IMG/VR virus record: IMGVR_UViG_3300012964_000006
Location: 1 to 54,070 of that record
Direction: 5' to 3' (one strand)
Origin: a virus
Length of the DNA stretch: 54,070 bases
This document shows positions 1 to 54,070 of the stretch, one piece after another (position 1 is the stretch's first letter; each line of letters starts with the position of its first letter). A model generated the notes under the pieces. It ran no database searches, had not been told where the DNA came from, and worked only from the letters and a program-made list of their open reading frames with translations. A program made the translations under genes and the position numbers.

Positions 1-123
1 GTCAATCTCAACACAGAGGCGGTAAGCGCGGGCGTAGGTGTATAGGTTTACTGTCTCCGCCGCCACTGGCGGTACTGCCTCGCCTCGTAGGTTATTACCG
101 TGGCCATTGTCAGGGCTACGATA
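1..123. repeat. Direct terminal repeat identical to 53948..54070 (contig closes on itself; unique length 53,947 bp)
   Basis: Bases 1-123 read identical to the last 123 bases of the window. Confidence 0.95.
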
Positions 124-3296: not shown

Positions 3297-4175
3297 GTCC
3301 TCAATCCCGGTGAACAACGGCAGATCGTCGAGGTTGCCGTTATCTCGAAGGGGTTTCCACTCTTTACGCTGTTCCCGTTCGACCTCACCCACCCGCCGGC
3401 GGGCCAGGTCGCAATACTCCTGGCTGATTTCAAAACCGAGATACTGCCGGCCGGTGACTACGGCCATTTTGGCAACCGTGCCGCTGCCTATCATCGGGTC
3501 AAAAACTATGTCGCCGGGATTGCTCCAGCTTAAAATATGGTCGTGGGCCAGGGCCTCGGGGAAAATTGCCGGGTGGTTAAAAATATATCTTTCGCTGTCT
3601 GGTTGCGTCCTTCCGGCCAAATAAAACCAGATATTACCCCTTATCGTTTTGTCGCTCGTGACTATGTGGTTTCTAGTTTGTGACTTCCTGACCGCTGCCC
3701 CTTGTCCAAAGCTGGCAGCCCGGCCCTTCATTGATTGCTTTTGCCCGGCGTGTTTGGTTGGCTCCATTATCGGATTGAATACTGCGGGTTTGCCTTTACT
3801 GAGGATAAACATATACTCAAATTTTTGTTCATAGCGATTATGGGTTAAAGGTGGTTTATCCCATTGATAAATCATTGTATCGTGTAGGTTAAACCCCAGC
3901 CCCATAAAATACAGGACCTGCCGAAAGCTATTACCTGATTCGCTCCCGTCCTTAGTTTCATCCCCCACGACCCAAACCACCACGCCGCCCGGCTTTGTCA
4001 CCCGGTAAAGCTGCTGAGCTATCCGCCCAAAGGGAAACACAAAGCCATTGTACCGCCGTAGTCCATCATAGGGCGGACTGGTTACGGACAGATTAATACA
4101 GTTATCCGGCAGAGCCGCCATAAGTTGGCTGCACTCGCCACAATGGATACTGTTTAATGGATACGGCCCCAACAT
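3294..4175 (-). CDS. DNA methyltransferase, beta-class N4/N6 (SPPY type)
   Basis: Motif IV TSPPY near the N-terminus, motif I FDPMIGSGT near the C-terminus. Confidence 0.85.
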   Translation of the reverse strand: MLGPYPLNSIHCGECSQLMAALPDNCINLSVTSPPYDGLRRYNGFVFPFGRIAQQLYRVTKPGGVVVWVVGDETKDGSESGNSFRQVLYFMGLGFNLHDTMIYQWDKPPLTHNRYEQKFEYMFILSKGKPAVFNPIMEPTKHAGQKQSMKGRAASFGQGAAVRKSQTRNHIVTSDKTIRGNIWFYLAGRTQPDSERYIFNHPAIFPEALAHDHILSWSNPGDIVFDPMIGSGTVAKMAVVTGRQYLGFEISQEYCDLARRRVGEVEREQRKEWKPLRDNGNLDDLPLFTGIED

Positions 4176-5199: not shown

Positions 5200-5418
5200 T
5201 TAGTCAGGTTCTACCGTAAAAAGGGAATCGACCGTAACGCCCAGGGCGTTGGCAATGCCAGCCATTGTCTTTAGGCTAACATCGTCAATGTGATCACGTT
5301 TTGCCAGCCGGTAAATGTGGTTAGAGTGCTTCCCCATCATTTGGGCCAGCTTGTAGGCCGAGACTCCTTTTTGCTTTAGAACGGCATCGATATTACTCTT
5401 GATTGCCACTTCTAACAT
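5200..5418 (-). CDS. XRE/Cro-CI family HTH transcriptional regulator
   Basis: KQKGVSAYKLAQMMGKHSNHIYRLAKRD HTH pattern; ATG 5418 with GGAGG upstream; divergent from the early plus operon. Confidence 0.8.
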   Translation of the reverse strand: MLEVAIKSNIDAVLKQKGVSAYKLAQMMGKHSNHIYRLAKRDHIDDVSLKTMAGIANALGVTVDSLFTVEPD

Positions 5419-5450
5419 TTCGCCTCCACTTTTATTCAAACTGTGCCCTA

Positions 5451-5479
5451 ATCATACCACACAATATTGGTACTGTCAA
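5451..5479 (-). promoter_or_regulatory. Promoter TTGACA-17-TGgTATGAT for the XRE gene
   Basis: Minus strand: -35 TTGACA (5474-5479), 17 nt, TATGAT (5451-5456) with TGn extension. Confidence 0.6.
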
Positions 5480-5509
5480 TAGACGGACTACATCTTTAAG
5501 GTAATACCC

Positions 5510-5538
5510 TTGACAAACAGTACCATCTATGGTATACT
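5510..5538 (+). promoter_or_regulatory. Early rightward promoter TTGACA-17-TGgTATACT
   Basis: TTGACA 5510-5515, 17-nt spacer, TATACT 5533-5538; spacer holds TACCAT..ATGGTA inverted repeat (possible operator). Confidence 0.65.
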
Positions 5539-7646: not shown

Positions 7647-7852
7647 TGAGTAGACAGGAATTAATCACCCTTGCGCGTTCGCAGGGGGCGACGCATTACA
7701 GCGTCCTGTACGATGAGTTTTACCGGCCGGTCGACGGCCAGGCCCACGCCTGGCAATCGTGCCAGGTGCTGGAAGGCGAGAACGGTTTACACCTCGGATG
7801 GTGGCTCAGAGATTGCCGGGACTATCCACCGGAAAGCGCGGTGACGATATGA
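7646..7852 (+). CDS. Hypothetical protein, paralog A
   Basis: MSRQELITLARSQGATHYSVLYDEFYRP..ESAVTI; tandem paralog of 7849..8049. Confidence 0.6.
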   Translation: MSRQELITLARSQGATHYSVLYDEFYRPVDGQAHAWQSCQVLEGENGLHLGWWLRDCRDYPPESAVTI

Positions 7853-8049
7853 CTAACATTTTGCCCGAAGCTATCAGGCAGAAGGCCATAGAGCAGGGCG
7901 CCACGTATTACAGCCTGCTCTATCGGGAATTTTACCGGCCTACTCCTGGTGGCGGATGGGAATCGGCAATCTGGCTTTCCACTGGCGAATTGAGCCGGTG
8001 GACACGCGAACAGGGCATTGACCCCGCCAAAAGCGCGGTGAAGCTATGA
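7849..8049 (+). CDS. Hypothetical protein, paralog B
   Basis: MTNILPEAIRQKAIEQGATYYSLLYREFYRP..KSAVKL; ATGA overlap with paralog A. Confidence 0.6.
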   Translation: MTNILPEAIRQKAIEQGATYYSLLYREFYRPTPGGGWESAIWLSTGELSRWTREQGIDPAKSAVKL

Positions 8050-8210
8050 TAACCTTCATCGCCTTTCTGTGGGTGCTATTCGCCGGCCCATTACCACTGC
8101 CCCGGCCGCCGCAGCCCACGCCCATCCCGCCGCAGCCGTTACCGCCGCGAGGGCGGGCGATCCTGTGGACTAATAAAGCCACAGGACAAACGCGGGTGAT
8201 GGTAGTATGA
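8046..8210 (+). CDS. Small Pro-rich membrane-anchored protein (54 aa)
   Basis: Hand translation MITFIAFLWVLFAGPLPLPRPPQPTPIPPQPLPPRGRAILWTNKATGQTRVMVV; ATGA overlap with the previous gene. Confidence 0.35.
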   Translation: MITFIAFLWVLFAGPLPLPRPPQPTPIPPQPLPPRGRAILWTNKATGQTRVMVV

Positions 8211-8320
8211 GCATCATTCGATGGTTGCTAATCGTGGCAAGAGACGCCCGACGATTAGGGAAGCTGGGCAGGGGAATTTAGAGGAATTTATAGGTCCAGC
8301 AGGGCCAGAAGGGTTTCGTG

Positions 8321-8602
8321 ATGAGTAAGCAGCTTTTTGATTATTGTGGTGAGCCTATCAACCATCCGGTTTATGATTCGTTGGTTGATGTTTCCTATGG
8401 GTTGTGGGTTTGCCCGACCTGTAAGTCAGAGTTCTATGGCGGTGGCCCAGCTATCCACGAAAGGGAATGTACCGAAACCGGCTATGGGGGCTGCGAGTTC
8501 CACTTTGGGCCAGGCCAGGTTGATGAAGTGAATCGGACGGGTAGATGGTATGGCATCACGTTGGAATACCTGAAAGAGAATTACCCCGAGTTGGTGAAAT
8601 AG
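8321..8602 (+). CDS. Hypothetical protein with CPTC zinc-ribbon-like motif
   Basis: 94-aa ORF, ATG 8321. Confidence 0.6.
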   Translation: MSKQLFDYCGEPINHPVYDSLVDVSYGLWVCPTCKSEFYGGGPAIHERECTETGYGGCEFHFGPGQVDEVNRTGRWYGITLEYLKENYPELVK

Positions 8603-8655
8603 ATCATCGCAACCCCAGCCCCCCGGTAAGTTGCCGGGGGAAGAACAAAGAAACG

Positions 8656-8664
8656 TGGTATAAT
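8656..8664 (+). promoter_or_regulatory. Extended -10 element TGGTATAAT
   Basis: TGGTATAAT 19 nt upstream of ATG 8683; same TGGTATAMT family as 5530-5538 and 6712-6720; no clear -35. Confidence 0.35.
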
Positions 8665-8682
8665 CAGGATAGGAGTTATGAG

Positions 8683-9483
8683 ATGAACGATACAAAGGCT
8701 TTAAGTTTACGAGGCGATATTGATTTAATGACCCTCGGTGACGTGATGGTACAAAGCGGTTTCTTCCAGGACAGCCGGCAGGCCGCGCAGGCGGTCGTTA
8801 AGATTTTGGCCGGCAGGGAGTTAGGGTTTGGCCCCATTGCCAGTATGACCGGGGTAAACGTCATCAAGGGCCGGGTGACACTTTCGGCCAATTTAATCGC
8901 CGCCGCTATCAAGCGGAGCGGCCGGTATAATTACCGGGTGACAAAGCAGGATGATAAGGGCTGCACAGTTGAGTTTTTCGAGGGCGGCCAGTCCATTGGC
9001 CAATCGACCTTTGACGAGGCAGACGCCAAAGCCGCCGGCCTGGCTGCTGGCGATAATTGGCGCAAATACCCCCGTAATATGTATTTCGCCCGGGCTATCT
9101 CCAACGGGGCAAAGTGGTTTTGCCCTGATATTTTCGGCGGGCCGGTTTACACCCCTGACGAAATGGGTGCGGTAGAGGATCAGGAAACCGGAGCGGTGGT
9201 TATGCCCGAAGTGGCGCCAGTGGATCCGCCGGCGCCCACCCCGGCCCCCCAATCAGCCCCCACCCGCAACGGTAAAGCCGCCGGCCTGGTGACCCGGATT
9301 AAAGAACTGGTCAAAGAACTGGAATTTAACGGCGATTGCCTCACCGTTGACCAGGCCTTCCTTGACACGGCCGATGTCGAAAGTCTTACCGATTTCGGCA
9401 AGAACCTACGCGCCCGACTGGAAACGGTCAAGGCCCAAAACGCAGCGATGGCAGACCCGGACGATCCCGAGCCGGCCAATTAA
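8683..9483 (+). CDS. RecT/Redbeta-superfamily single-strand annealing protein
   Basis: GVNVIKGRVTLSANL.. and DNWRKYPRNMYFARAISNGAKWFCPDIFGG resemble the Bet/RecT C-terminal core; AGGAG 8671-8675; Pro/Ala-rich tail. Confidence 0.65.
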   Translation: MNDTKALSLRGDIDLMTLGDVMVQSGFFQDSRQAAQAVVKILAGRELGFGPIASMTGVNVIKGRVTLSANLIAAAIKRSGRYNYRVTKQDDKGCTVEFFEGGQSIGQSTFDEADAKAAGLAAGDNWRKYPRNMYFARAISNGAKWFCPDIFGGPVYTPDEMGAVEDQETGAVVMPEVAPVDPPAPTPAPQSAPTRNGKAAGLVTRIKELVKELEFNGDCLTVDQAFLDTADVESLTDFGKNLRARLETVKAQNAAMADPDDPEPAN

Positions 9484-27147: not shown

Positions 27148-27247
27148 ATCAGTGGGCTTGGGCGGTCTAGCTAACCACCGACAAGCCGGGAACCCTGTAC
27201 CCGGCGCCCCACATATTTACAGGGCTAACTCTAACAGGGAGAGTGAA

Positions 27248-28060
27248 ATGATTAAGAATTGCCTCGTTTGTGGTACTCCATTTGAGTCCTTCCCCGCCTC
27301 CGGGCGAAAGTATTGTTCCCGCACCTGTATGGGCATCGCCAAATCCAAGCGCATTGAGCGAATTTGCCTGACCTGTGGTAAGGCGTTTTTTGCCCCACAT
27401 CAAAAGGTAGAAGCTGGATTTGGGCTTTACTGTTCCCGCGCTTGCGCTGATTACGGTTGGGATGAGCCTTGCCAGAACTGCGGCAAATTGGTGCATCGCA
27501 CACCGTTCCACTCCAGAACACAGGACCACGTTTTTTGTAGCCGCAAGTGTTATGGACAATGGAAACGCCGCCGGATTCAGGTGGCTTGCCAGAACTGCGG
27601 CAGAGTGTTTGAGGGTAAGCAATCCGACGCCGCAGATACTAGGTATTGCTGCCTGGCCTGCTATAACCAGGCCAGGGCACAGAAATTTACCATGTTGATT
27701 TGCCAGCATTGTGGTAAACCGTTTCAGCGTCCGGCGGCCTTTGTCAACCCGAATATGTACCTGGGTAAATATTGCTCCGCCGAATGTATGGGCCTTTCCC
27801 GCCGCTTGCCCGATAGCATCAGATCCGACTACGATCATCAGTTTACCGAAAGCCTTAAAGAGCAAATAAGAAATCGAGATGGCAGAAAGTGCCAGGTTTG
27901 TGGCAGAGCCGAATCTCAGCTTTCCAGAAGCCTTGATGTTCACCATATTGACTACGATAAAACTAACTGCCATCCCGATAACCTGATTTCGCTTTGTGGC
28001 CCTTGCCACTCTCGAACTAACTATAATCGCCCCCGATGGAAACAACGCTTTATGCGCTGA
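27248..28060 (+). CDS. HNH homing endonuclease with five tandem zinc-ribbon modules
   Basis: 5 x [CxxCG-x11-19-(Y/F)C(S/C)xxC], then C-terminal CQVCG..DVHHIDYD..NLISLCGPCH; ATG 27248 with GGGAGAG SD. Confidence 0.8.
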   Translation: MIKNCLVCGTPFESFPASGRKYCSRTCMGIAKSKRIERICLTCGKAFFAPHQKVEAGFGLYCSRACADYGWDEPCQNCGKLVHRTPFHSRTQDHVFCSRKCYGQWKRRRIQVACQNCGRVFEGKQSDAADTRYCCLACYNQARAQKFTMLICQHCGKPFQRPAAFVNPNMYLGKYCSAECMGLSRRLPDSIRSDYDHQFTESLKEQIRNRDGRKCQVCGRAESQLSRSLDVHHIDYDKTNCHPDNLISLCGPCHSRTNYNRPRWKQRFMR

Positions 28061-28062
28061 TG

Positions 28063-30285
28063 TTAAGCGCAGTTGGATTTGTGAAGTGGCCTAAAGTCAC
28101 TGACAGGGAGGCAATCGTAGGTGGCGCTAAACCGGAAGCTCATCAGCCGCACCTTATAGCGCAGCGTGTCGTTGGTGAACATCGCCCCGGCCGTTTCCTG
28201 GTCACTGGTAAAGAGTTGCGGTACTTGCTGGCCCCGAAGGGAGATGTCCCAAATTGCCGGCGCAACCTGTGGATCAGCCGCGAGCGCCCAGTTGTTGGTG
28301 TCGGTCCATTCGGGAACGGCGATGACATCAAACTCGTTTTGGTAGGGGTTAATGTCGTTATTGGCGCTGCCGGGCAATTTCTCGCTGTTACGCAGGGCTA
28401 CGGCCGTATTTTCCAGGTCAACCGGAACGAGCATGTACTTGGGCCGAAGCATCAGGCGAGTACCCGCGCCAAGGTATTGATCGGTTTGTTTTCGCATTGC
28501 CTCGCGGGCGGCTCCGTAGGCGGCGTAGCTCAGGGCGGCAGTTAACAGGTTAGCGTGACCGCCCGCGCCTGTGGCGGCCGTGGCATTGAACAACGCGCCG
28601 GTATCGGCTAAAACCGGACCGGCGGCGGTGTTGGTGGTAAACACGGCCGCAGCGCGGGCGCTCTTGGTGTTAAACCAGGAATTGGCCAGGCGGTTGGGGA
28701 TGGTCCGAATCACGTTCACCTTGTCACGCAACAGGGTTTCCATTGTTACCCCAACGTAGTTACCGTTTTTGATGAAATTGGCGGTTTCTTCCTCGTCAAC
28801 CCAATTCAGTTCCGTGTAGGCCGCGCCTTCGTTAACGGTTGACAGGGTGGTAAATCCGTAGGTCCGCACCAGGGTAAAATCGTCAATCGTGTCAGCCTGT
28901 TCCTGCCGGCAGATCGGCGCCCACCACTCGTTTCGCTTGCTGTAGTCGTTGGCCAGGATGATGTTGACGGTGTTTTTGACGATGCTGGTCATCCCGCTGG
29001 TACTCACGGCTTCGGCCGCGCGGGGGTCCGAGAAGTAATCGCCGCCCAGGATGTCATAGGCCCATTCGGACAGCCGGCGGTAGCCGTCGTATTGGCGGCC
29101 GGCCTTAACCCAATCCCGGTAAGCCTCGGGGACGCGCTCCTGGACATAGTCTTTGGTATTGGCTTCCAGGGCTTTAAACTCGCTGTTGCCCATTGCCATA
29201 CGCAAGAAAGCCAGCTCGAACTTGTCGCGTTCGTTCAGGCCCACGGTGATAGCCTGCCGGCCGTTCCCGGCATCTGCCACCCGGCCGCTGGTATCCTCGG
29301 CCGCCTGCGCTTCCTTGACGCGCTTGATCGCGGCGTCGAGTTCGGCGTCCTCAAAGACCTTGCCAGCAAACTGGCCCATAACGATAGCCCGGAAAGCCTC
29401 GGGCAGTTTGGCCGCGTTCAGCTTCCGCTCAAGGGCCAATTCGCACCGGGCCAGGCGGGCTTCCTGGGCTGCGGCTTGCGCGGCCTGTTCCGCCGGGTCG
29501 GGTTCGTCGGCCTCGGCTTCCATCCCGGGCATCATTTGGCCTTTACCTTTCTTGCCCTTCATTTTGTCCTTCAAAGCCGCCTCTGTTTCGGGCTCGGCTT
29601 CGGGTTCGGTCGCAACCGCTTCGGGCTGGGCGGCCGGGGCCATCTCCGCCAGTGCAGCCTTTACAGCGTTCGCCACCAATGCTTTGATTTCTTCTTCGTT
29701 CATAGTGGGTTGCTCCTGTAAAATATTGGCGGCTATCAGGCGGTTAAAACCACCCCCGGCCGCTGGCTCAGCTACTAAATCAACAGAAAGAATTTTGTTA
29801 AACCCTTCGATGGTGGGCCAGGCTTGCCCCTCTAAAATCTGTTCCTTGCCCACAATCGGAAAGGTGTCTATACTCAGGCCGATGGTGTTTAATACCCCGG
29901 CCTCGTAAGCTGCTTTAAGTTTTGCGGCTAATGCCGCTTCAACGACTTTCAACACGCCGCGCAGTTGTTTGGTTGTTTCTTCCCAGTACGGGGCGACAAT
30001 CGTCCCGATCCACTCTTTGGCGACTGACCGCATCCCCTGTTTTTGCTCAAATTCCTCTTGGGTCAGGTGGTTGTCATAGACCTTCACCCCCTCCCACATC
30101 GGCAGGGATTTTTGCAGGGCTTCGACGGCGTATAACCGGCCGTTCTTGGAGCGCACATATTCACGCCCGCTGGCCGTTACCAGGTCCGTGGCTTCCTGAG
30201 CGCCGATAATGGTTACGTCCCACTCGCGGCCCTCGCTATCCTTTTTTGTGACTTTGGCTTCGACCCAGATAGATTCATTTGCCAT
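28063..30285 (-). CDS. Major capsid protein fused to an N-terminal domain and a scaffold-like linker
   Basis: 740 aa: ~190-aa N-domain, Ala/Glu/Pro-rich and coiled segment, ~400-aa C-terminal HK97-fold-like region; no separate scaffold or protease gene seen. Confidence 0.7.
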   Translation of the reverse strand: MANESIWVEAKVTKKDSEGREWDVTIIGAQEATDLVTASGREYVRSKNGRLYAVEALQKSLPMWEGVKVYDNHLTQEEFEQKQGMRSVAKEWIGTIVAPYWEETTKQLRGVLKVVEAALAAKLKAAYEAGVLNTIGLSIDTFPIVGKEQILEGQAWPTIEGFNKILSVDLVAEPAAGGGFNRLIAANILQEQPTMNEEEIKALVANAVKAALAEMAPAAQPEAVATEPEAEPETEAALKDKMKGKKGKGQMMPGMEAEADEPDPAEQAAQAAAQEARLARCELALERKLNAAKLPEAFRAIVMGQFAGKVFEDAELDAAIKRVKEAQAAEDTSGRVADAGNGRQAITVGLNERDKFELAFLRMAMGNSEFKALEANTKDYVQERVPEAYRDWVKAGRQYDGYRRLSEWAYDILGGDYFSDPRAAEAVSTSGMTSIVKNTVNIILANDYSKRNEWWAPICRQEQADTIDDFTLVRTYGFTTLSTVNEGAAYTELNWVDEEETANFIKNGNYVGVTMETLLRDKVNVIRTIPNRLANSWFNTKSARAAAVFTTNTAAGPVLADTGALFNATAATGAGGHANLLTAALSYAAYGAAREAMRKQTDQYLGAGTRLMLRPKYMLVPVDLENTAVALRNSEKLPGSANNDINPYQNEFDVIAVPEWTDTNNWALAADPQVAPAIWDISLRGQQVPQLFTSDQETAGAMFTNDTLRYKVRLMSFRFSATYDCLPVSDFRPLHKSNCA

Positions 30286-30418
30286 AACGTTTACCTCAAG
30301 CGCGGCTAAGTGCGCTTTTGCTTTTTTGTCCGTTTCGTGACACCCGCCGGGTATCGGCTTGTCGTCGCCTTTTTTATGTATTCAACGACCGCGCAATTCA
30401 TACGGCATAAAAACCTCG

Positions 30419-30456
30419 GAAAATAAAAAGAGCGCCGGAAATTAACCCGGCGCTCT
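30419..30456 (-). terminator. Intrinsic terminator ending the capsid-leader RNA
   Basis: Minus strand AGAGCGCCGG-GTTAATTT-CCGGCGCTCT followed by TTTTTATTTTCC. Confidence 0.75.
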
Positions 30457-30615
30457 GTGGCGCTCTTGAAAAGTGTTTGATTCTTGGGGCCGGTATCTTG
30501 GACCGGCGCCCCTGACCCGCCGCTTGTCTTGCGACTTCCCGCCCCTGCTACCTCCGGGGAAACCCCGGTGCATCAAGCGGTACTTGTAGCGCGGACGGGC
30601 CAGGTACTATTTATA
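30421..30615 (-). ncRNA. ~195-nt structured leader / small RNA between a consensus promoter and a terminator, upstream of the capsid gene
   Basis: No convincing ORF; 13-bp closing helix (30591-30604 with 30511-30523), GCTAC/GTAGC helix, CCGGGG-TTT-CCCCGG hairpin, terminator. Confidence 0.45.
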
Positions 30616-30621
30616 CCCCAA

Positions 30622-30650
30622 ATTATAGCCGAGATTGCGGCTTATGTCAA
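30622..30650 (-). promoter_or_regulatory. Perfect consensus promoter TTGACA-17-TATAAT
   Basis: Minus strand: TTGACA = 30645-30650, TATAAT = 30622-30627; -35 overlaps the stop of 30647..30880. Confidence 0.7.
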
Positions 30651-30880
30651 TGCTCTGATTTCCCCTTCCAGCAATCCCCCATTGCCCGGTATTCGTCGTA
30701 GGGATCAGGCTTACGGGCCGGGTCGTTAAGAAACCACTGGCTTTTATCGCACCAATCGGGCAATGGTGGATCAAAGCCCATCCTGGCTTCACTGGGCGAA
30801 AAATCAAATGGAAGAATCGTGCCGCCTGGCATAATCTCTAATTCCTGCCCGGTGCTAGCGTCGTACAACACTACCCTCAT
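30647..30880 (-). CDS. Hypothetical protein
   Basis: 77-aa ORF. Confidence 0.55.
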   Translation of the reverse strand: MRVVLYDASTGQELEIMPGGTILPFDFSPSEARMGFDPPLPDWCDKSQWFLNDPARKPDPYDEYRAMGDCWKGKSEH

Positions 30881-31310: not shown

Positions 31311-31338
31311 TTTCCCTTCACCCCCATTATACCACGGC

Positions 31339-31367
31339 TTGACCGGCAGACAAAACGAACGTATAAT
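31339..31367 (+). promoter_or_regulatory. Promoter TTGACC-17-TATAAT for the RHH operon
   Basis: TTGACC 31339-31344, TATAAT 31362-31367. Confidence 0.6.
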
Positions 31368-31369
31368 AT

Positions 31370-31387
31370 ATACACAATATTGTGTAT
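31370..31387. promoter_or_regulatory. Perfect 18-bp palindrome ATACACAATATTGTGTAT (operator candidate)
   Basis: Sits between the -10 and the SD of the RHH gene. Confidence 0.6.
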
Positions 31388-31397
31388 GGAGTAATCA

Positions 31398-31529
31398 ATG
31401 AGGTACAATATCTCTCTACCGAATCACCTATGGGAAGCGGCCAAAATCAAAGCCGGGATAACCCCTATGAGCGCGATTATCCGCCGATTGCTGGAAAAGT
31501 GGCTCAGCGGGGAGATAAGCGCAGACTGA
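31398..31529 (+). CDS. Ribbon-helix-helix (CopG/Arc-like) protein, 43 aa
   Basis: Hand translation MRYNISLPNHLWEAAKIKAGITPMSAIIRRLLEKWLSGEISAD (beta strand plus two helices). Confidence 0.6.
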   Translation: MRYNISLPNHLWEAAKIKAGITPMSAIIRRLLEKWLSGEISAD

Positions 31530-32107: not shown

Positions 32108-32338
32108 ATGACAGCAACTATCTTCATCCTTGGCAAAAAGGCCACAATTACCGATTACGAATGGCGCGCCGACAATCCGGCGGTTGCCAATTTGTTAAAC
32201 TCGCTACTTGACCCGGCCGGCCCCTCTGGTGCCGATCCTAACCCGGATTTAACCACGGCCCAGGAAATCGCCATTAGATTCAACGGCGAGGTACTGGACT
32301 TCGAGCCGGTGAAATCGGAAACGGGCATCGTTTATTAA
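32108..32338 (+). CDS. Hypothetical 76-aa protein, convergent with the MuF gene end
   Basis: ORF 32075..32338 trimmed to ATG 32108; its stop overlaps the MuF stop. Confidence 0.5.
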   Translation: MTATIFILGKKATITDYEWRADNPAVANLLNSLLDPAGPSGADPNPDLTTAQEIAIRFNGEVLDFEPVKSETGIVY

Positions 32339-35106
32339 AATCCCCTCAAAAGCCCAAAAATAAAGTCAAAGTAGTCTGGATCGGCTTTGGCAAATGCCGC
32401 CGGGTCTGCCCACATATTTTCCATCCCCATTGATATAATTTCAGTGGCGTACCGTTGCCCCGTAGCCTTATTTAGATATTCCTTGCCCATATACGAACTG
32501 GTAAACTTGTCCCGGCGCGCAACCTCGTGTTTTTCGTAGCTACCCCCTAACCATTCCAGGGTTTCGCCCTTTGTTCGCCGGTCGTAAAACTCCAGGGCTT
32601 TTTGATGGACTCTTGGGTCCATATCTTCTAACCAATGTCCCAATTCGTGAATAGCCGTTCTTTGCCCGTCCCCCTTGCCAAGTACGACGCTGCCATTAAG
32701 GTCATAAAACGCACGGCCCTTACCCCTCGGCTTAATACCAACCGTCCTGCCATCAATGGTCCCTGTGCCAACCATCTTGGAAAATTCCTCGGCTCCGTCC
32801 TTGTACGCGGCCCGCCTGGTCTTATCAAATGTCCCCTCGAATTTTGTTTTTATCTGAGCGGGTTTTTTGACATAGAGAACTTCACGCTGACGAGACAGCA
32901 AACCCTGTTTTATTTCTGTAAGTTGGTTTACTAATGATGAGTGATGTATAACCTTCGCGTCAATGTCGCGGCTCATTTGCCTATATAATTCCCGGTCTGC
33001 GTCTGTCCAATTGGGATAATTATCGTAGAAGTTTCGCTTCTTTTCCCACATAGAATTTAATTCATCATCGGCCGTACTTATTTGCGCCCTCAGGCCCTTA
33101 ATTTCTTTGTCAAGTTTGTCCGGTATCGTTTCAAGTATTTGACTTCTGGCCCGTTGTCCCACATTAGCCAGTGCTTTCATTTGCTGGATCTTTAGTTGCT
33201 GCGCGCGCCTTTCTTCCTTTTCGCCCTGTGCCCTATCCCGCCGCATCTTTTCGTTGACGACTTTTTTATCTAGCGGCGTCTCGACTGCGCCTATGGCCGG
33301 GTGTATTGTCACCATCGAACAACGACAATTCTTGACAATAAACGTATTGCTGATGTATAATTGTTCTATAGTTTGGAGGTCAAAAACGTGTCCAGAAAAA
33401 TCGAAATTCCTAACCTTGATGATTTGATTATTCGATATAAATCCGGCGAATCTATTAAAGAATTGTCGCGCCAAATTGGTATAGGTGGTGGGCCTCTCTG
33501 CCGACGATTTGCTCAGGCTGGTGTGAAAATTAGACACCCCAAGCGCGTCGACGTACCCAACCTCGGCGTCATTGTAGCCAGGTATGCCGCCGGTGAACCG
33601 GAACAAAGACTCGCCAAAGAATACGGTATAACCCGTACTATTCTGCGTCGTCGGTTGATTGAGGCCGGGGTGCCCATTCGTGGCATTAGTGAAGCCAACA
33701 CGATTCGGATGCAAAATATGTCTCCCGGGAATCGCCTGGTTTTGACCGAAGCCGCCCACTCTGCCGTAAGGGGTAAAAAGCGCACCGAGGCCGAACTTAT
33801 CAAGCGGGCCATAACCCGTCAGGAAACCTTGCAGTATGTTACCCCGGCTGAATTGATTTTGATCGAAATGCTCGGGGAGCGCGGTATCATTCTTACTCCG
33901 CAAAAAGCCTACGGCCGGTACAATATCGATATTGCCCTTGATGAATTTCCCGTCGCCGTGGAAGTAATGGGGCATAACGGCGCTTACCGCTTGAAAACCC
34001 TCTCTGGCTACAACCGAAAGAGAACCCCATATCTCCTCGATTCTGGTTGGCACGTGGTCATTGTCCGGGTCGACGGTACGCGCTATTTCATTACCCCGGC
34101 TGCTGCCGATTACATAGTCGCCTTCACGCAAGAACTTGGCCGCAACAAACCCCCTACTAGTCAATATCGGGTGATTGGGGGTAACGGTGAGTTGTTTACC
34201 GCTGTCTATGGTTAGCTCGATGGCTGGTCCATCATAAAAGGACCGAGCCGCCGCAACCAAGCCAGGGGCGATAACACTATTGCCTGGCAAAATACAGTTG
34301 ACGGTTTCTTGCGCTCCCCCGGCCGGATCGCCCGGCTGCATCAAAAACGAGCCGCCCACCTGAAACGGCTGGCTCACCGGAATAGGTGCAAAGAAATACC
34401 GGCTATGGGCTATCAGGTGACTTCGACGCGTTCTCCTGTCTGCCGCCGCTAACCATCGCTTTTGTAGTTCTGGTATCGCTTTTGCTGTCTCCGCCTGTTG
34501 GCTTGCCGCCGCCAGGTTGTAAACGCGGGTCATCTCTGTCCGGGCGATAGCCTCGGACCTGGCGGCAACGCCCGTGACAATCTCCGGCCTGCGCCTGATT
34601 CCCCACGCGCCCGCCCGGGCCTCCGTGCCGAGTATGTCCGTTATGGCTTTCATCGTGTCCAATGGGCTGCGCTGTCCCAGCGTGGCCAGCCTCAGTTGTA
34701 CGTCAATCTGGCCCCGCATCGTGTCGCTGACATTACGGATAAGCGCGGCGCTGTAATCAAACGAGGCGTTCAGTTGCGCCGGGTTGATGACGTTAAACGC
34801 CCCTCCAAGGTCTGCCTGTATGATCGGGTCCACCACGGAGTCGCCGCCAAGTCGCGCCGCCTGGTTAAATGATTGCCGCAGATTGGCGTCAAGCCGGGCC
34901 TGGTACTCGTCAATCATCCGGTTTATGCTCGTCTGCATCTCGCCCATTCGCCAGGCGGCAAATTCGGACGTGGCAACCTGTCCGGCGATTTGATTCCGCA
35001 AATCCTGGAGGGCCGAGATAAGCGCCTTCACGGTGTCATCTTCCAGGGAGACATACCGGCGAATGACCGAATCAAGCGCGGTTTTATACTTCTGCTTTGG
35101 GGTCAT
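32335..35106 (-). CDS. Head morphogenesis / minor capsid protein (Mu F / SPP1 gp7-like) interrupted by an intein, with a C-terminal HExxH domain
   Basis: MuF-like N-domain ending ..ETVN | intein | CRCSMV (N-CRC motif); position after portal; HELGH at 32635-32649. Confidence 0.75.
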   Translation of the reverse strand: MTPKQKYKTALDSVIRRYVSLEDDTVKALISALQDLRNQIAGQVATSEFAAWRMGEMQTSINRMIDEYQARLDANLRQSFNQAARLGGDSVVDPIIQADLGGAFNVINPAQLNASFDYSAALIRNVSDTMRGQIDVQLRLATLGQRSPLDTMKAITDILGTEARAGAWGIRRRPEIVTGVAARSEAIARTEMTRVYNLAAASQQAETAKAIPELQKRWLAAADRRTRRSHLIAHSRYFFAPIPVSQPFQVGGSFLMQPGDPAGGAQETVNCILPGNSVIAPGLVAAARSFYDGPAIELTIDSGKQLTVTPNHPILTSRGFVAAKFLREGDYVIGSSRGNEIARTVDPDNDHVPTRIEEIWGSLSVVAREGFQAVSAVMPHYFHGDGKFIKGNIDIVPAVGFLRSKNDTALPEHFDQNQFSRGNILQGFLTGYGPLDKFGLGALFTPYGRVGGFGQNQAIPGRHILHPNRVGFTNATNGHPGLNQPTTQNSTGYTVFFGESLFRFTGGIPGYNDAEVGYVDALGVSNFHTSLSKSSAERPTTYTNLARQFFNRFAGFISNNQIIKVRNFDFSGHVFDLQTIEQLYISNTFIVKNCRCSMVTIHPAIGAVETPLDKKVVNEKMRRDRAQGEKEERRAQQLKIQQMKALANVGQRARSQILETIPDKLDKEIKGLRAQISTADDELNSMWEKKRNFYDNYPNWTDADRELYRQMSRDIDAKVIHHSSLVNQLTEIKQGLLSRQREVLYVKKPAQIKTKFEGTFDKTRRAAYKDGAEEFSKMVGTGTIDGRTVGIKPRGKGRAFYDLNGSVVLGKGDGQRTAIHELGHWLEDMDPRVHQKALEFYDRRTKGETLEWLGGSYEKHEVARRDKFTSSYMGKEYLNKATGQRYATEIISMGMENMWADPAAFAKADPDYFDFIFGLLRGF
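33332..33361 (+). promoter_or_regulatory. Promoter TTGACA-18-TATAAT for the antisense endonuclease gene
   Basis: TTGACA 33332-33337 (overlaps intein codons VKN), TATAAT 33356-33361, GGAGG 33375-33379. Confidence 0.6.
33388..34215 (+). CDS. HTH-repeat plus Vsr/DUF559-type PD-(D/E)XK endonuclease (homing endonuclease candidate), antisense within the intein
   Basis: GTG 33388 after GGAGG; repeats IIRYKSGESIKELSRQIG / IVARYAAGEPEQRLAKEYG; nuclease core GRYNIDIALDEFPVAVEVMGH..GWHVVIV. Confidence 0.65.
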   Translation: MSRKIEIPNLDDLIIRYKSGESIKELSRQIGIGGGPLCRRFAQAGVKIRHPKRVDVPNLGVIVARYAAGEPEQRLAKEYGITRTILRRRLIEAGVPIRGISEANTIRMQNMSPGNRLVLTEAAHSAVRGKKRTEAELIKRAITRQETLQYVTPAELILIEMLGERGIILTPQKAYGRYNIDIALDEFPVAVEVMGHNGAYRLKTLSGYNRKRTPYLLDSGWHVVIVRVDGTRYFITPAAADYIVAFTQELGRNKPPTSQYRVIGGNGELFTAVYG

Positions 35107-40953: not shown

Positions 40954-41604
40954 CTAATGAGTGATATAAAACGCTCTTTGTTCAAATAGGGCCATCTGCT
41001 CAGGCCCCACTACTCTGTATGCATCAGGTAGGTCTGCTTGTTTGTACACTGGCGGGTTCTCCGTTTCATACCTCATATCATCTAGGGGTAAACTCGCTCC
41101 GACTGTCCAGCCCAGCCCGTCCCGTTTGATAAACTCTGCTCTCCACAAGTTGCCAGTGTAACCACTGTGACAATTCCGGCAGAGCAGACAACATTTGTCT
41201 AATTCCTTCCAGGTTTCGGCAAAATTATTGTTATAAATAAGCGAGGTGGGAGTATGCTTCTTTTCGGCCCGGTAAATATGATGAAAGTCCAACCCTGCCG
41301 TAAATTCCTTGTATCCACACCGCTGGCAACACCCACCGGACAATTCCACAAACTTAACTTTTAGCCCGTTGTTCCGATCCCTGTTGTATTTCTTTGCCCA
41401 CTCCCTATCCCGCTTTGCGTTGTTCTCACAATCAATACAATAACTCCGATACCCATAATTTGTGTTTTGGCCTTCGCCTGGATTCCGCCACCTGTAAAAC
41501 TGCTTTACCGGCTTGAATCGCTTGCACTCGCTACACCATAATTGGCCCTGACTCCACATCTGATTACGGAGCTTTAATTCTGTTGTTGTTAATCTCTTTG
41601 GCAC
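40954..41604 (-). CDS. HNH endonuclease
   Basis: CSECK, CIDCE, CQRCG..DFHHI..CLLCRNCH; GTG start; own promoter and leader. Confidence 0.75.
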   Translation of the reverse strand: MPKRLTTTELKLRNQMWSQGQLWCSECKRFKPVKQFYRWRNPGEGQNTNYGYRSYCIDCENNAKRDREWAKKYNRDRNNGLKVKFVELSGGCCQRCGYKEFTAGLDFHHIYRAEKKHTPTSLIYNNNFAETWKELDKCCLLCRNCHSGYTGNLWRAEFIKRDGLGWTVGASLPLDDMRYETENPPVYKQADLPDAYRVVGPEQMALFEQRAFYITH

Positions 41605-43044: not shown

Positions 43045-43303
43045 CGTGGCCCCTTCCCCAAAACTCATCGGCCAATTGTTCCGCGACGGCCTGGGCCGTG
43101 GTAATTTCTGCAAGCCGGTTTTCGAGATGGTTTAGGGCTTCGGTCAGGCGGTCGATCCGGTCGAGGAATTGCTTATCCCGCCTGTCAACGTACCAGGCAA
43201 AGATAACCAACAGGGGAAATTGAACTATAATCGGGGTCAGGAGTTCCCATTCAGGCGTTGCCGCCCCTTGCAAAAATGGCATAAATAGTGATATGATGTT
43301 CAT
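43013..43303 (-). CDS. Membrane protein
   Basis: 96 aa, N-terminal TM helices; first gene after the 43.4-kb switch region. Confidence 0.55.
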   Translation of the reverse strand: MNIISLFMPFLQGAATPEWELLTPIIVQFPLLVIFAWYVDRRDKQFLDRIDRLTEALNHLENRLAEITTAQAVAEQLADEFWGRGHDDRKSNIGRG

Positions 43304-43392
43304 AGGCTCTCAGGGAAGCACCTTTTTCCTGTTTGCTCAGGCCCGGGCCGGGTGCGGAAATCACCTGACCCGGGCCGCGTGGTTTAAAGACA

Positions 43393-43429
43393 AAGGGCCA
43401 TACCCCGCTAGCGGTACGGCCCTTTTTTA
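43393..43429 (-). terminator. Promoter-proximal terminator-like hairpin (T-rich on both strands)
   Basis: GGGCC(43395-43399)..GGCCC(43418-43422); TTTTTT on plus, TTTGTCTTT on minus. Confidence 0.45.
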
Positions 43430-43448
43430 CGCCTGTTCTTTTCTGGCA

Positions 43449-43462
43449 AGAACGGGTGTTCT
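43449..43462. promoter_or_regulatory. LexA-like box AGAACGGGTGTTCT
   Basis: GAAC-N4-GTTC core; immediately downstream of the minus-strand -10; extra half-site TGTTCT at 43433-43438. Confidence 0.5.
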
Positions 43463-43468
43463 GTTGTT

Positions 43469-43497
43469 ATAATATTATGTTTTATGCCTATTGTCAA
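43469..43497 (-). promoter_or_regulatory. Promoter TTGACA-17-TATTAT (leftward operon)
   Basis: Minus strand: TTGACA = 43492-43497, TATTAT = 43469-43474. Confidence 0.55.
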
Positions 43498-43557
43498 GTT
43501 AAGGTTTTTGGCAGGTTGACAATAATAAAACCCGTCTAAAACTCGTGGTAAAAACTA

Positions 43558-43586
43558 TTGACAACTGACTATATATCGGATATAAT
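43558..43586 (+). promoter_or_regulatory. Perfect consensus promoter TTGACA-17-TATAAT (rightward)
   Basis: TTGACA 43558-43563, TATAAT 43581-43586, 45 nt upstream of ATG 43632. Confidence 0.7.
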
Positions 43587-50341: not shown

Positions 50342-50664
50342 AACCCCGCCCTCACCAGGTCGTCAACCGACTCGGCCACAATCGCAATCCCGCCGGCCGC
50401 TTCGACCGCTGCCAGGAAGGCCGCTTGAAGGTCACTCACCTGCCCACGTCGGCCGGGGCGTTTGCACTCTACCGCATAGAACGTTCCCCGGTTGGTGCAG
50501 CCGATAATATCAGAGCTGCCCGGTACATCCGTAAAGCGAAAGAATCGCCGCTTGCCCTGGTACTCATTCACCTGGGCGCCGTTGTTGATGCGAATGGCGA
50601 TGTGACCGCGTAGCCTTAAGTAGTCTAAACAGGATCGCTTGACATCGTTCTCTGATGCGCTCAT
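50338..50664 (-). CDS. VRR-NUC domain nuclease
   Basis: CLDYLRLRG..GSSDIIGC..FYAVECKRPG..Q..F pattern. Confidence 0.75.
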   Translation of the reverse strand: MSASENDVKRSCLDYLRLRGHIAIRINNGAQVNEYQGKRRFFRFTDVPGSSDIIGCTNRGTFYAVECKRPGRRGQVSDLQAAFLAAVEAAGGIAIVAESVDDLVRAGL

Positions 50665-52922
50665 TATGCCGCCTCTCCAAATAGGGAGTATTGCCCCTCG
50701 GTTGCCATCGTTTTTAGTGCGACCTCTGCCGTTTTGCCCTCTGCCCGGGGAAGGGCATTGACCGCCAGGTAGACCGGGTTAAGGTCCAACCCCACAAATC
50801 GCCGGCCCAGGTTGCGGGCGACCTCGCCGGCCGTACCGCTGCCACAAAAAGGATCAAGGGCGATTGCCGGGACGGTTGGGGCTGTTTTGTTTCCGGCGAC
50901 TCGGGTTGTCCACAGGTACGGCTTGATTTCATCGGCCGCCAGGACAAATACCGCCCGGTGCAATTCGGGAATATCTTTGTTCTCCGCCACTGCCGCCAGT
51001 TTGTCATACCGCTTCTGAATCAGGTCTTGCCGGCGGCGCTTGGTTGGGTTGGCGGTACGGTAGCAGGTACAGGATGGTTGCCAGCCGGTGGTAATGGGCT
51101 GCTTATATCCCGGCATTGTTCCACCAGGGCCGCCCCTCGCTCCGTGCTCCAAATCGTGTTGCCTGTCGGTACTTCGCCAATCGCCAACCCTTGCGGTTTC
51201 CACCACCCTCACCCACCCGGCCCCGCACTTCGGGCAGCACCCCCGCGCACTCGTACCAGCCAAAACGCACGGCTCCACGAGCTTTGTGGGGAAGGTGGCA
51301 AAGTGGGCGCCCGGGTACGCTTCGGTGGCAATGGTCCAAATTGTGCGGCGATTGCGATGCCCACTAAAGACTTTTATCCCCGGTGTATTGCTTTCGTTAC
51401 CAGGTCGCCCAGCTCCGTTAGTCTCTTTTTTGCCAACGTGAAACGCGCTGTTGTATCGGCCGGCGTATTGCGGATCCGCGCTTTCCCTTACCGCCTCTGC
51501 ATCATAAAAATACCGTTCCTGCTTCGTCATCAGAAACACGTACTCGTGCGCTTTCGTCGGCCGATCGTCAACCGATTCGGGCATTGGATTCGGTTTTGCC
51601 CAAATAATCGTTGATCGGCAAATCCAGCCATCTTCCATCAAGGCCCGCTTGACCAGATCGGGTATACCTAATTCCTGTTTCGCCCTGGTTGCGTTTGACA
51701 ATCGTTTGGCTTTGTCGTATAATTCAGCATAACGAACAAGACTACCGAATTGATTGGAGATAAACAAATGTCTTACGGAATTGACAGTAATCTTGATAGC
51801 CCCATCCATCAAAGAGAGCGCGAAATGCTCAGGGGTGGCTTTAGTTATGCGGAAATTGCGCAAGCCCTGGGGAGTAAACACAAGAGCATTGCTGAGCGTA
51901 ACAGGTTGGTCTATAAGATCGACGTCCGCCAGGCTTTTGCTGACAGAATCAGGCGCGACGGTGTCCCTTGCCGGCTGGAAGTCTCCGACAGCTTTGGTTA
52001 CTGGTTTAGTGGATTCTTCGACGGCGAGGGGCATATTGGAATTTATAGCAGGCAAAGGGCAGATAGGTACATCGAGCGAAGATTGTCCATTCAAATTATC
52101 ATCCGAGACGACGACGCTGATGTTATTCATTCCATCAGGGATAATCTGAAGGTCGGTATTGTTTATGACAATGGCGGACACGGAAGAACTAACCCTAACA
52201 CTACTTTCAGGGTTGAGCAGATTAACGACCTGGCAGAAATCATTGTCCCTTTGTTTGAAAAGTATCCGCTTCACACTAAGAAAGCGCGTGAATTCGCCAT
52301 CTGGAAGGACATTGTTGGGCTTCAATACACCGTCACTATGGGCGGATATAGTCAACGCGCATCGGCCTCCGATGAACATAACGCCATTTTTGATAATGCC
52401 CTCAAGTTGATTAGCGATATTCGCACCTACCGACGATGACGGCTTATCCCTGAAAGTCCGGTCATCATTGCCGGCCGCTTTCGTTGCCGCCGCGCTTCGG
52501 CCGTTTGGGGCGGTGGCATAGGAATCCCCAATGTTAAGCCAGAGCGTTGCCTCGGGCCGCAGCACTCGCCACACTTCACGAAAGATATTGACAATGTGCT
52601 GGATAAATAAGCCGGGTGTTGGTTCCAGGCCCAGGGAGCCGCGCCAGGCGTGGCAGTGGATACAGAATTGACCAGAATCAGCGGTTTGTCCGATAGCGGC
52701 AGCGGCGTTATGTTTGGCCCCGGTGTTAGTTTGCGGCACTTGATTGGGGTGATGAGCCAGTCCAAGTTGCCCCCACTCGTGCTGGCAATCTTCCCGCCCG
52801 TCCCAAATCATAGGCGTAATTCCGTAGTCCCTTAAGCCCCACTAATAAGGCGGACTAGTCACTACACAGTGTACTGACTCGTCCGCCAAAGGGATGCGAA
52901 AGCTATTAGCGTGAACAATCAT
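50664..52922 (-). CDS. DNA methyltransferase (beta-class N4/N6) carrying an in-frame TAG and a ~250-codon in-frame insertion
   Basis: ATG 52922 with AAGGAGG SD: MIVHANSFRIPLADESVHCVVTSPPY-TAG-WGLRDYG..GLEPTP..LNIGDSY..[insert]..IIWAKPNPMPESVDDRPTKAHEYVFLMTK..HFATFP..DPFCGSGT. Confidence 0.7.
51695..51723 (+). promoter_or_regulatory. Perfect consensus promoter TTGACA-17-TATAAT for the LAGLIDADG gene
   Basis: TTGACA 51695-51700, TATAAT 51718-51723, GGAG 51756-51759. Confidence 0.65.
51768..52439 (+). CDS. LAGLIDADG homing endonuclease (single-motif) with N-terminal HTH
   Basis: GYWFSGFFDGEGHIGI (LAGLIDADG motif); ATG 51768. Confidence 0.8.
   Translation: MSYGIDSNLDSPIHQREREMLRGGFSYAEIAQALGSKHKSIAERNRLVYKIDVRQAFADRIRRDGVPCRLEVSDSFGYWFSGFFDGEGHIGIYSRQRADRYIERRLSIQIIIRDDDADVIHSIRDNLKVGIVYDNGGHGRTNPNTTFRVEQINDLAEIIVPLFEKYPLHTKKAREFAIWKDIVGLQYTVTMGGYSQRASASDEHNAIFDNALKLISDIRTYRR
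52842..52844 (-). other. In-frame TAG codon inside the methyltransferase
   Basis: Minus strand ..TCC? no: ..AGT CCG CCT TAT TAG TGG GGC TTA AGG GAC TAC GGA = S P P Y * W G L R D Y G. Confidence 0.85.
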
Positions 52923-53496
52923 CCCGCCCTCCTTTCTGCTCAGATTCCTTGATAAAGTCTCTGTTGATATTCTTGGTACTGTGGACCCAGTTGTGGCAGT
53001 CCGGGCAAAGCAAAATGAGGTTGTCTACATCGGCCCTTAGTTCCTTCACCTGAAAAGATACAATGTGGTGAATGTGGAATCGGTCCCTATTTCTGGCTAT
53101 AGCCCCACACCGCCGACAAATACCCCTGTCGCGTCGCCACACGGACAAGGCGGCCTTTTTCCATTCCCTGGAAGCGTAAAAACCTTGTCTTTCGGCGGTT
53201 ATGCCACCCTTCCAGTTTGGTACTTCTGCCCCCCTGCGCCCGTACATTGGGTTCTTTTTTCCATTGGCCCCCCAATGCTTAACGGCCCTGGTTTCTGATA
53301 TAGTACGGGTTGGTATTTGGTGCTTTTGGAGAAAATAGAGGATATTGTTTTCGATGCAGCCAAAATCATCCGCGATGTCTTTGGCTGACCTTTGCTTTAT
53401 AACATATTCGTTGTAGAGCCATTCCCGATTCCAGTAAGGCTTTTCTGTTCGCCAGTGTTCGCCCTTAACGAATCTACCTGTGATTTTGTCCGGCAT
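52906..53496 (-). CDS. HNH homing endonuclease
   Basis: CRRCG..FHIHHIV..NLILLCPDCHNWVH; start at ATG 53496 (MPDKITG) downstream of its own promoter and leader; maximal ORF runs to 53700. Confidence 0.75.
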   Translation of the reverse strand: MPDKITGRFVKGEHWRTEKPYWNREWLYNEYVIKQRSAKDIADDFGCIENNILYFLQKHQIPTRTISETRAVKHWGANGKKNPMYGRRGAEVPNWKGGITAERQGFYASREWKKAALSVWRRDRGICRRCGAIARNRDRFHIHHIVSFQVKELRADVDNLILLCPDCHNWVHSTKNINRDFIKESEQKGGRDDCSR

Positions 53497-53655
53497 AGCA
53501 AAACGCCCCTTACCAAGTTTGCCATCGTTGCCTAGACGAATGGCGGGACGTGAATCCACCTGATAAGGGGCGCTTTGCCCACAATGAGTATTGTGTTTTT
53601 CGATGGCGTCTAAAAAAGCAAAACGCCCCGTGGTCCATTCGTCTAGGCACTTACC

Positions 53656-53684
53656 AGTATAACACAGTTCGGCCGGAATTGCAA
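53656..53684 (-). promoter_or_regulatory. Promoter TTGCAA-17-TGtTATACT for the HNH gene
   Basis: Minus strand: TTGCAA = 53679-53684, TATACT = 53656-53661; -10 and leader are homologous to the 3268-3296 promoter. Confidence 0.5.
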
Positions 53685-53696
53685 TACCCTGTACTA

Positions 53697-53834
53697 TCAT
53701 CTCCTAATCCCCCTCCACCCTCTCGCCCCGTTCAGCCTCCTGACCTCTTTTGAATACTGCCGGTAGCGGCAGATGCAATTTATCGCCACCCACAGGGCAG
53801 CGATTACAGCGATGGTATAGGCGGTGTCGCTCAT
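53697..53834 (-). CDS. Small membrane peptide (45 aa)
   Basis: Hand translation MSDTAYTIAVIAALWVAINCICRYRQYSKEVRRLNGARGWRGIRR; ATGA overlaps at both ends. Confidence 0.4.
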   Translation of the reverse strand: MSDTAYTIAVIAALWVAINCICRYRQYSKEVRRLNGARGWRGIRR

Positions 53835-54013
53835 TTTTGCGCCTCGCTCAATTCCCCGTCCAATATCGCCCTCACCACCTCGTCCAGCGTTCGCAACAAC
53901 ACGCCGTCCCTGGTGCGCCAGTGAGCCCGGCCGCTGGTCAGGCCGGCGTCAATCTCAACACAGAGGCGGTAAGCGCGGGCGTAGGTGTATAGGTTTACTG
54001 TCTCCGCCGCCAC
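53831..54013 (-). CDS. Hypothetical protein (60 aa, GTG start)
   Basis: ORF-track entry; partly inside the terminal repeat. Confidence 0.45.
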   Translation of the reverse strand: MAAETVNLYTYARAYRLCVEIDAGLTSGRAHWRTRDGVLLRTLDEVVRAILDGELSEAQK

Positions 54014-54070
54014 TGGCGGTACTGCCTCGCCTCGTAGGTTATTACCGTGGCCATTGTCAGGGCTACGATA
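53948..54070. repeat. Direct terminal repeat (copy of 1..123)
   Basis: Identical sequence. Confidence 0.95.

Follow-up and report, generated by a model that had tools for sequence, protein, structure and literature searches.

In phage lambda the late structural genes can be reached only by readthrough of a terminator. The constitutive sigma-70 promoter pR′ (TTGACT, a spacer of 17 nt, and TAAATT) lies just past a small gene, 42 nt after Q, and gives rise to the 6S RNA, a non-coding terminated transcript of approximately 194 nt, the whole unit being located ahead of the lysis and packaging genes. In phage HK022, the putL and putR sites are double stem-loops of about 70 nt which place a structured RNA between a strong promoter and downstream terminators and which in principle need no protein factor. 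Gp39 of Thermus phage P23-45 and p7 of Xanthomonas phage Xp10 are factor-type antiterminators without a dedicated RNA site, by which the host polymerase is made terminator-resistant for late genes located behind intrinsic terminators. Thermus phage P23-45 is an example of such antitermination (PMC9163698). In bacterial attenuators and riboswitches, finally, promoter, structured leader, intrinsic terminator and gene also follow each other in this order.

Here we describe a cis-regulatory cassette of an already known kind, placed directly at the capsid gene, in the window (the whole stretch of 54,070 nucleotides analyzed in this work). To our knowledge, nothing is known about gene regulation in uncultivated phages such as this one. 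An exact direct repeat of 123 nt is present at both ends of the window (1-123 and 53948-54070), and the contig, which comes from a JGI metagenome, thus closes into a circular genome of 53,947 bp. Proteins identical to those of the window were found on four public contigs, and the only hints about the host came from two related loci located in Anaerolineales and Chloroflexota MAGs. Upstream of the capsid gene and on the same strand are the genes for the terminase, for an SPP1-like portal and for a MuF-like protein that contains an intein. The gap between the MuF-like and the capsid genes is occupied by a 2-kb island of lower GC content, with six small ORFs on both strands, one of them encoding an Arc-like repressor with divergent promoters. 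In the direction of transcription, the features of the cassette and its surroundings are the following:

30647-30880, minus strand: ORFan of 77 aa with the promoter in its 3′ end; no detectable family and no homologues found
30645-30650, minus strand: -35 hexamer TTGACA, overlapping the TGA stop (30649-30647) of the 77-aa ORF
30622-30627, minus strand: -10 hexamer TATAAT, at a spacer of 17 nt from the -35
About 30616-30614, minus strand: predicted transcription start, placed by the usual distance of 6-8 nt to the -10
30610-30615, minus strand: second -10-like hexamer TATAAA, 6 nt past the -10, within a small 5′ hairpin GGUAU..GUACC
30511-30604, minus strand: GC-rich (68%) three-way-junction domain of 94 nt, predicted to consist of a 13-bp closing helix, a CCGGGG-UUU-CCCCGG arm and a GUC-GCAA-GAC hairpin
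30486-30510, minus strand: predicted hairpin GGCGCCGGUC-CAAGAU-ACCGGCCCC, directly 3′ of the junction domain
30457-30485, minus strand: A/U-rich unpaired linker of 29 nt, holding the distal copy (30466-30459) of the terminator half-stem AGAGCGCC
30420-30456, minus strand: intrinsic terminator, with its stem at 30456-30429 followed by the tail UUUUAUUUU
30382-30417, minus strand: GAGG and a uORF of 8 codons (MPYELRGR), immediately past the terminator
30298-30317, minus strand: hairpin adjoining the capsid RBS, with a terminator-like score on the plus strand
28063-30285, minus strand: capsid gene, encoding a 740-aa fusion of a protease/scaffold region with the major capsid protein (Phage_capsid_4 at residues 429-714)

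The promoter (30650-30622, minus strand) reached the full consensus score of 12/12, and the initial annotation was right in reading a perfect TTGACA-17-TATAAT over the stop of the preceding gene. Four promoters with a score of 12/12, and several more with 11/12, were detected in the window, compared to a chance expectation of about 0.02 perfect promoters per 54 kb on both strands at uniform base composition. Perfect promoters are thus far over-represented in this genome, which argues that consensus sigma-70 promoters are used by the phage. As in lambda, the promoter of the window is constitutive-looking and lies just past a small gene, the 77-aa ORF occupying with respect to it the position that Q occupies with respect to pR′. 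Both promoters also carry a -10-like hexamer 6 nt past the -10, AACGAT in lambda and TATAAA in the window. By this analogy, TATAAA (30615-30610) is a possible candidate for a sigma-dependent pause element; the hexamer is not conserved in the relatives, so that we take it as a weak lead only. Another candidate, TAAATA as a motif shared by the initially transcribed regions, was not significant (P about 0.1), and with these two results no site for the loading of a factor could be defined.

Between promoter and terminator, the leader of about 195 nt contains no credible ORF, as had been annotated initially: its sole ORF has 44 aa, begins with TTG and lacks a ribosome-binding site, and the gene calls of the matching public contig leave the whole interval empty. 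Folding of the full RNA (197 nt) yielded -86.5 kcal/mol with a z of -4.62, a value equaled by none of 200 shuffled sequences, and the 94-nt junction domain folded alone yielded -50.1 kcal/mol (z -3.9). Two elements of the earlier structure, the 13-bp closing helix and the CCGGGG-UUU-CCCCGG hairpin, were recovered with pair probabilities of at least 0.95. The third, an inner GCUAC/GUAGC helix, can form but lies 3.9 kcal/mol above the minimum free energy (MFE) with a pair probability of about 0.001; in its place, the MFE structure pairs CCGCUU with GGGCGG and forms the GUC-GCAA-GAC hairpin. The hairpin directly 3′ of the junction was absent from the structure annotated initially. No mutually exclusive antiterminator pairing was found in the leader, nor did inspection of the sequence provide a convincing alternative pairing that joins the stable 13-bp P1 helix to the terminator.

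The terminator is the sole strong one on the minus strand within the structural block (11.9-38.5 kb). Its stem (30456-30429) consists of 11 bp, 8 of them G-C pairs, closes a loop of 6 nt and is followed by TTTTATTTT up to position 30420; the predicted energy of the hairpin is -21.4 kcal/mol. The strong terminator annotated at 30456-30419 was confirmed together with its U-tract. Two further elements had been overlooked. The first is a direct duplication of the half-stem AGAGCGCC (30466-30459 and 30456-30449). The second is the 8-codon uORF, whose start (GAGG-N5-ATGCCG) aligns with the Shine-Dalgarno sequence and ATGCCG of the capsid gene in the related locus L040, and which may represent a relic start or else a leader peptide. 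The ATG of the capsid gene lies at 30285, that is, 134 nt beyond 30419, as first stated, and 143 nt past the terminator stem.

We also compared the cassette with those of related phages. The capsid relatives found in IMG/VR, GTDB genomes and JGI metagenomes were distant (mostly 30-45% identical), and a query limited to the 200 N-terminal residues of the capsid protein retrieved proteins of about 60% identity; a scan of metagenomes for closer relatives returned capsid fragments only, without the upstream region. Ten loci were compared (the window, L009, and L036 to L043), with capsid N-terminal domains 45-64% identical. Several of the relatives are long-read assemblies with 2-5x coverage in which sequence errors are possible. 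As shown by this comparison, all ten loci have the same order of promoter, leader, hairpin with U-tract, and capsid start. The promoters fit TTGAC[ACGT] and TAnnnT with a spacer of 17 nt (18 nt in one) and scored 9-12 of 12; the leaders measured 66-187 nt (66-98 nt in the relatives, 142 nt in L009), and the terminator hairpins, with energies of -16.2 to -29.5 kcal/mol, were followed by runs of 5-8 U. The distance from stem to ATG was 11-34 nt in the relatives vs. 143 nt in the window, which in the relatives leaves no room for another promoter. The capsid N-termini align (MANESIWVEAK in the window with MAKSEIIVLEAK in L036), and the start codons are thus consistent across loci. Since the genes that precede the cassette vary from locus to locus, the cassette is linked to the capsid gene and not to its upstream neighbor. 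In a control set of 12 capsid relatives of about 30% identity, no locus had an upstream promoter of at least 10/12 and only 2 had a T-run of at least 5, and the capsid gene usually abutted the MuF-like gene.

At the level of sequence, conservation was restricted to the promoter hexamers and, within sub-lineages, to the terminator. The window terminator, with its duplicated half-stem, is homologous to the capsid-gene terminator of L040 (Smith-Waterman z = 9.0; local alignment was used for these two leaders because the global MAFFT alignment was unreliable). The duplication itself was significant in the window (P = 0.001) and L040 (P = 0.008) only, and it was discarded as a feature of the whole clade. 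L036 and L039 have highly similar promoter regions; between their terminators, two base pairs have changed in a compensatory manner and 100% of cells are paired, a comparison of two sequences that is statistically weak. As judged from the homology between window and L040 and from the compensatory changes, the terminator is under selection. By contrast, the three-way junction and its adjacent hairpin are present in the window only and absent from all relatives, and about 115 additional nt, beginning with GAGG-N5-ATGCCG, follow the terminator of the window. The window leader hence looks like a mosaic of the ancestral short cassette and later insertions. Conservation or covariation of the helices in relatives had been named beforehand as one test of the structured RNA; it went against the junction and in favor of the terminator.

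A cis-acting readthrough control of the capsid gene and the late structural operon is the reading that we prefer, and we give it an even chance of being correct. Under this reading, a host RNA polymerase of the sigma-70 type would start at the consensus promoter within the end of the preceding small gene and, by default, would be released about 195 nt further on at the strong intrinsic terminator, producing a short and abundant leader RNA. Polymerase arriving from the upstream terminase, portal and MuF genes would meet the same terminator. Expression of capsid and tail genes would then need readthrough, which might be supplied late in infection by some antitermination factor. No further promoter-like site was found between terminator and capsid start, either in the window or in the nine relatives, and capsid transcription must consequently cross the terminator, whether transcription begins at the adjacent promoter or at a more distant point upstream. 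From the sequences compared we infer that the promoter fires and the terminator terminates. Readthrough would, in addition, be regulated rather than constitutive, and it would be what makes capsid expression late. The initial annotation had already proposed, from the architecture, that capsid and tail expression depends on readthrough, and the recurrence of this layout in nine related loci of diverged sequence strengthens that proposal.

The closest working analogue is the pR′/6S/tR′/Q unit of lambda, an assignment made by analogy only. Both have a non-coding terminated transcript of similar size (predicted to be about 195 nt in the window) and, in the window by prediction, late structural genes that are reached only through the terminator. 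However, the RNA of the window has no sequence similarity to 6S RNA, and its cassette is located directly before the capsid gene and downstream of terminase, portal and MuF, whereas that of lambda precedes the lysis and packaging genes. Neither a Q protein (lambda, 82 and 21 types) nor N nor any other named antiterminator was found among the approximately 50 ORFs scanned, most of which have no family, and the 77-aa and 91-aa upstream ORFs had no Pfam or PHROG match. With regard to HK022, the window also has a structured RNA between a strong promoter and a downstream terminator, but as a 94-nt three-way junction with a hairpin instead of a double stem-loop. Local alignment of the RNA to putL and putR was not significant (z = 2.1 and 0.5, respectively), the shared string GCGGCGGGU(U)CAGG lies in a different structural context, and the domain is not conserved in relatives. 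Membership in the lambda Q or HK022 put families, to which the architecture had been likened at first, thus found no support. In difference to bacterial attenuators and riboswitches, the leader has no Rfam match and no mutually exclusive antiterminator pairing, and the leaders of the relatives (66-98 nt) are too short for an aptamer.

The same layout could also be produced by a leaky attenuator, insulator or 5′-UTR module, that is, by a constitutively partial terminator that has no dedicated antiterminator. Such an element would stop most of the polymerase that has transcribed the low-copy head genes upstream and would trim the output of a very strong promoter. In the readthrough mRNA, the hairpin and the U-rich tract by the RBS would stabilize the 5′ end and enhance translation. 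This agrees with the nine relatives, where hairpin and U-tract abut the RBS at 11-34 nt from the ATG, with the small 5′-proximal hairpins that recur in the leaders, and with the lack of an antiterminator gene among the scanned ORFs. Inefficient terminators that serve to tune expression are numerous in phages (PMC9163698), which also counts in its favor. On the other hand, with stems of 10-22 bp and runs of 5-8 U, these hairpins have the canonical form of strong terminators, and losing most transcripts of the most highly expressed gene of the phage would be costly. In the window, moreover, a distance of 143 nt separates the terminator from the ATG, and the terminator is thus no RBS-adjacent UTR element there. 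We consider a leaky terminator unlikely.

A consensus promoter followed by a terminator also fits a small RNA gene, and this counts against readthrough control. In that case the 195-nt RNA itself would be the product, a trans-acting phage sRNA that base-pairs with or sequesters host or phage targets, and the capsid gene would be transcribed by upstream polymerase that is already termination-resistant. The RNA has the equipment for such a role (a consensus promoter of its own, a strong U-tailed terminator, an unpaired A/U-rich linker of 29 nt and a stable fold), and it adjoins an accessory island that has its own promoters and an Arc-like repressor. Nevertheless, no seed is conserved, the leaders of the clade being unrelated except for promoter and terminator, no significant complementarity was found elsewhere in the phage genome, and the cassette keeps its close linkage with the capsid start although the genes upstream of it vary. 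A stand-alone sRNA had been offered initially as an alternative; its promoter and U-tailed terminator stood up to analysis, no target appeared within the phage genome, and we judge it decidedly unlikely.

In order of survival, control by an RNA specific to this phage comes last. Rfam 15 gave no match at gathering thresholds in the window or the nine related loci, and in E-value mode only sub-threshold noise, so the Rfam search proposed at the outset assigned no family; ARAGORN found no tRNA or tmRNA. The RNA had no match by blastn in phage and plasmid collections or by four exact or degenerate seeds in IMG/VR. The three-way junction was not found by blastn and nhmmer in 43 related loci, and a single-sequence covariance model of junction plus hairpin had no match over 180 kb of related loci. 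The 119-nt junction and hairpin (30604-30486) is an orphan within Rfam, the relatives, IMG/VR and the phage and plasmid collections, and it has the look of an insertion, specific to this lineage, in a leader that was short ancestrally. No relative carries the domain, so that the conserved function of the cassette does not need it, and the initial view of the structured RNA as a functional part found no support, the junction being absent from all relatives that keep the cassette. That the junction and hairpin act as a put-like cis antiterminator, which would render polymerase from this promoter resistant to the terminator of its own unit, or as an aptamer sensing a ligand or protein and governing the terminator, is very doubtful: the domain folds better than its shuffles and sits between promoter and terminator, and the duplication of the terminator half-stem, a potential binding or switching element, is conserved with L040, but the domain has neither put similarity nor an Rfam match, nor a convincing alternative pairing of P1 with the terminator. 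The window also lacks the family of small proteins that precedes the cassette in L036, L039, L040 and L041, no homologue having been found, and this is a point in favor of RNA control. It would be a long shot to propose that the 119-nt element represents a new class of phage cis-acting RNA, a protein-independent antiterminator or sensor which in this lineage took over the conserved capsid-gene terminator and replaced the small-protein gene of several relatives. By its folding energy only, the window-specific RNA is a candidate new cis-regulatory RNA.

The main interest of the readthrough cassette is its placement directly at the capsid gene, conserved in a clade of uncultivated phages. If it works as proposed, it would mark the control point of capsid production in this clade, and, if this is true, late control in the style of lambda would be exerted at the capsid gene by an agent distinct from Q, N and put. 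The pair of promoter and terminator also provides a simple assay for finding such an antitermination factor.

Several other observations were made in the related loci. The gene behind the cassette of L043 (2501-3544) encodes a fusion between a homologue of the capsid N-terminal domain and a 2′-5′ RNA ligase / Acb1-like domain (PF13563; PF23474 weak). In L038, the cassette is closely preceded by a near-perfect inverted repeat of about 190 nt (3673-3860; -104.9 kcal/mol, z -7.4), which may be an assembly artefact, the contig being a long-read one of 1.96x. L036, a relative of 59 kb, carries reverse-transcriptase (RVT_1) genes downstream of the capsid region (7672-9035), which may belong to a diversity-generating retroelement. 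A 12-mer found in the window terminator occurs identically in L032 (424-787), in four copies about 117 nt apart, which suggests a tandem repeat array.

Within the window, the accessory island between the MuF-like and the capsid genes contains overlapping divergent promoters (31326-31367 and 31370-31400; 11/12 on the plus and 10/12 on the minus strand), which separate the operon of the 43-aa Arc-like repressor from that of the 91-aa and 77-aa ORFs. Just past the -10 of the plus-strand promoter is ATACACAATATTGTGTAT, a perfect palindrome of 18 bp, and the region (31326-31400) is probably an autoregulated switch within this island of six ORFs. A gene for a Cys-rich HNH endonuclease (27152-28060, plus strand) directly follows the capsid gene in the opposite orientation; with at least two further HNH genes (40954-41604 and 52906-53700), this is a genome rich in homing-type endonucleases.

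The remaining 12/12 promoters of the window were found in other settings. In the region 33332-34215, one of them (33332-33361, plus strand) drives a 279-aa ORF with HTH and REase_MTES_1575-like matches, which is wholly contained, in antisense, in the part of the MuF-like head gene (32335-35106, minus strand) that encodes the intein (residues about 286-593). The minus-strand frame stays open across it, and the arrangement looks like a homing-endonuclease gene antisense inside an intein. The second, in the region 51695-52439 (plus strand), drives a 229-aa LAGLIDADG endonuclease ORF, embedded in the same antisense manner within a 715-aa ORF (50664-52811, minus strand) that ends in a C-terminal N6/N4 DNA methylase. 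The region 43300-43586 contains divergent early-type promoters (12/12 on the plus strand at 43558 and 11/12 on the minus strand at 43497). Ahead of the first gene, the leftward leader from 43497 forms three strong hairpins, including a terminator-like one (z -4.0), and is a second case of promoter followed by terminator in this genome, another terminator (41682-41657) being located in the same co-directional gene array. A second put- or nut-like copy after this early leftward promoter was considered and rejected, the shared GGGUCAGG having a different hairpin context. Finally, the stretches 5451-5538 and 5200-5439 hold a third pair of divergent promoters, scoring 11/12 and provided with extended -10 elements, next to a 79-aa HTH protein of the Cro/CI type.
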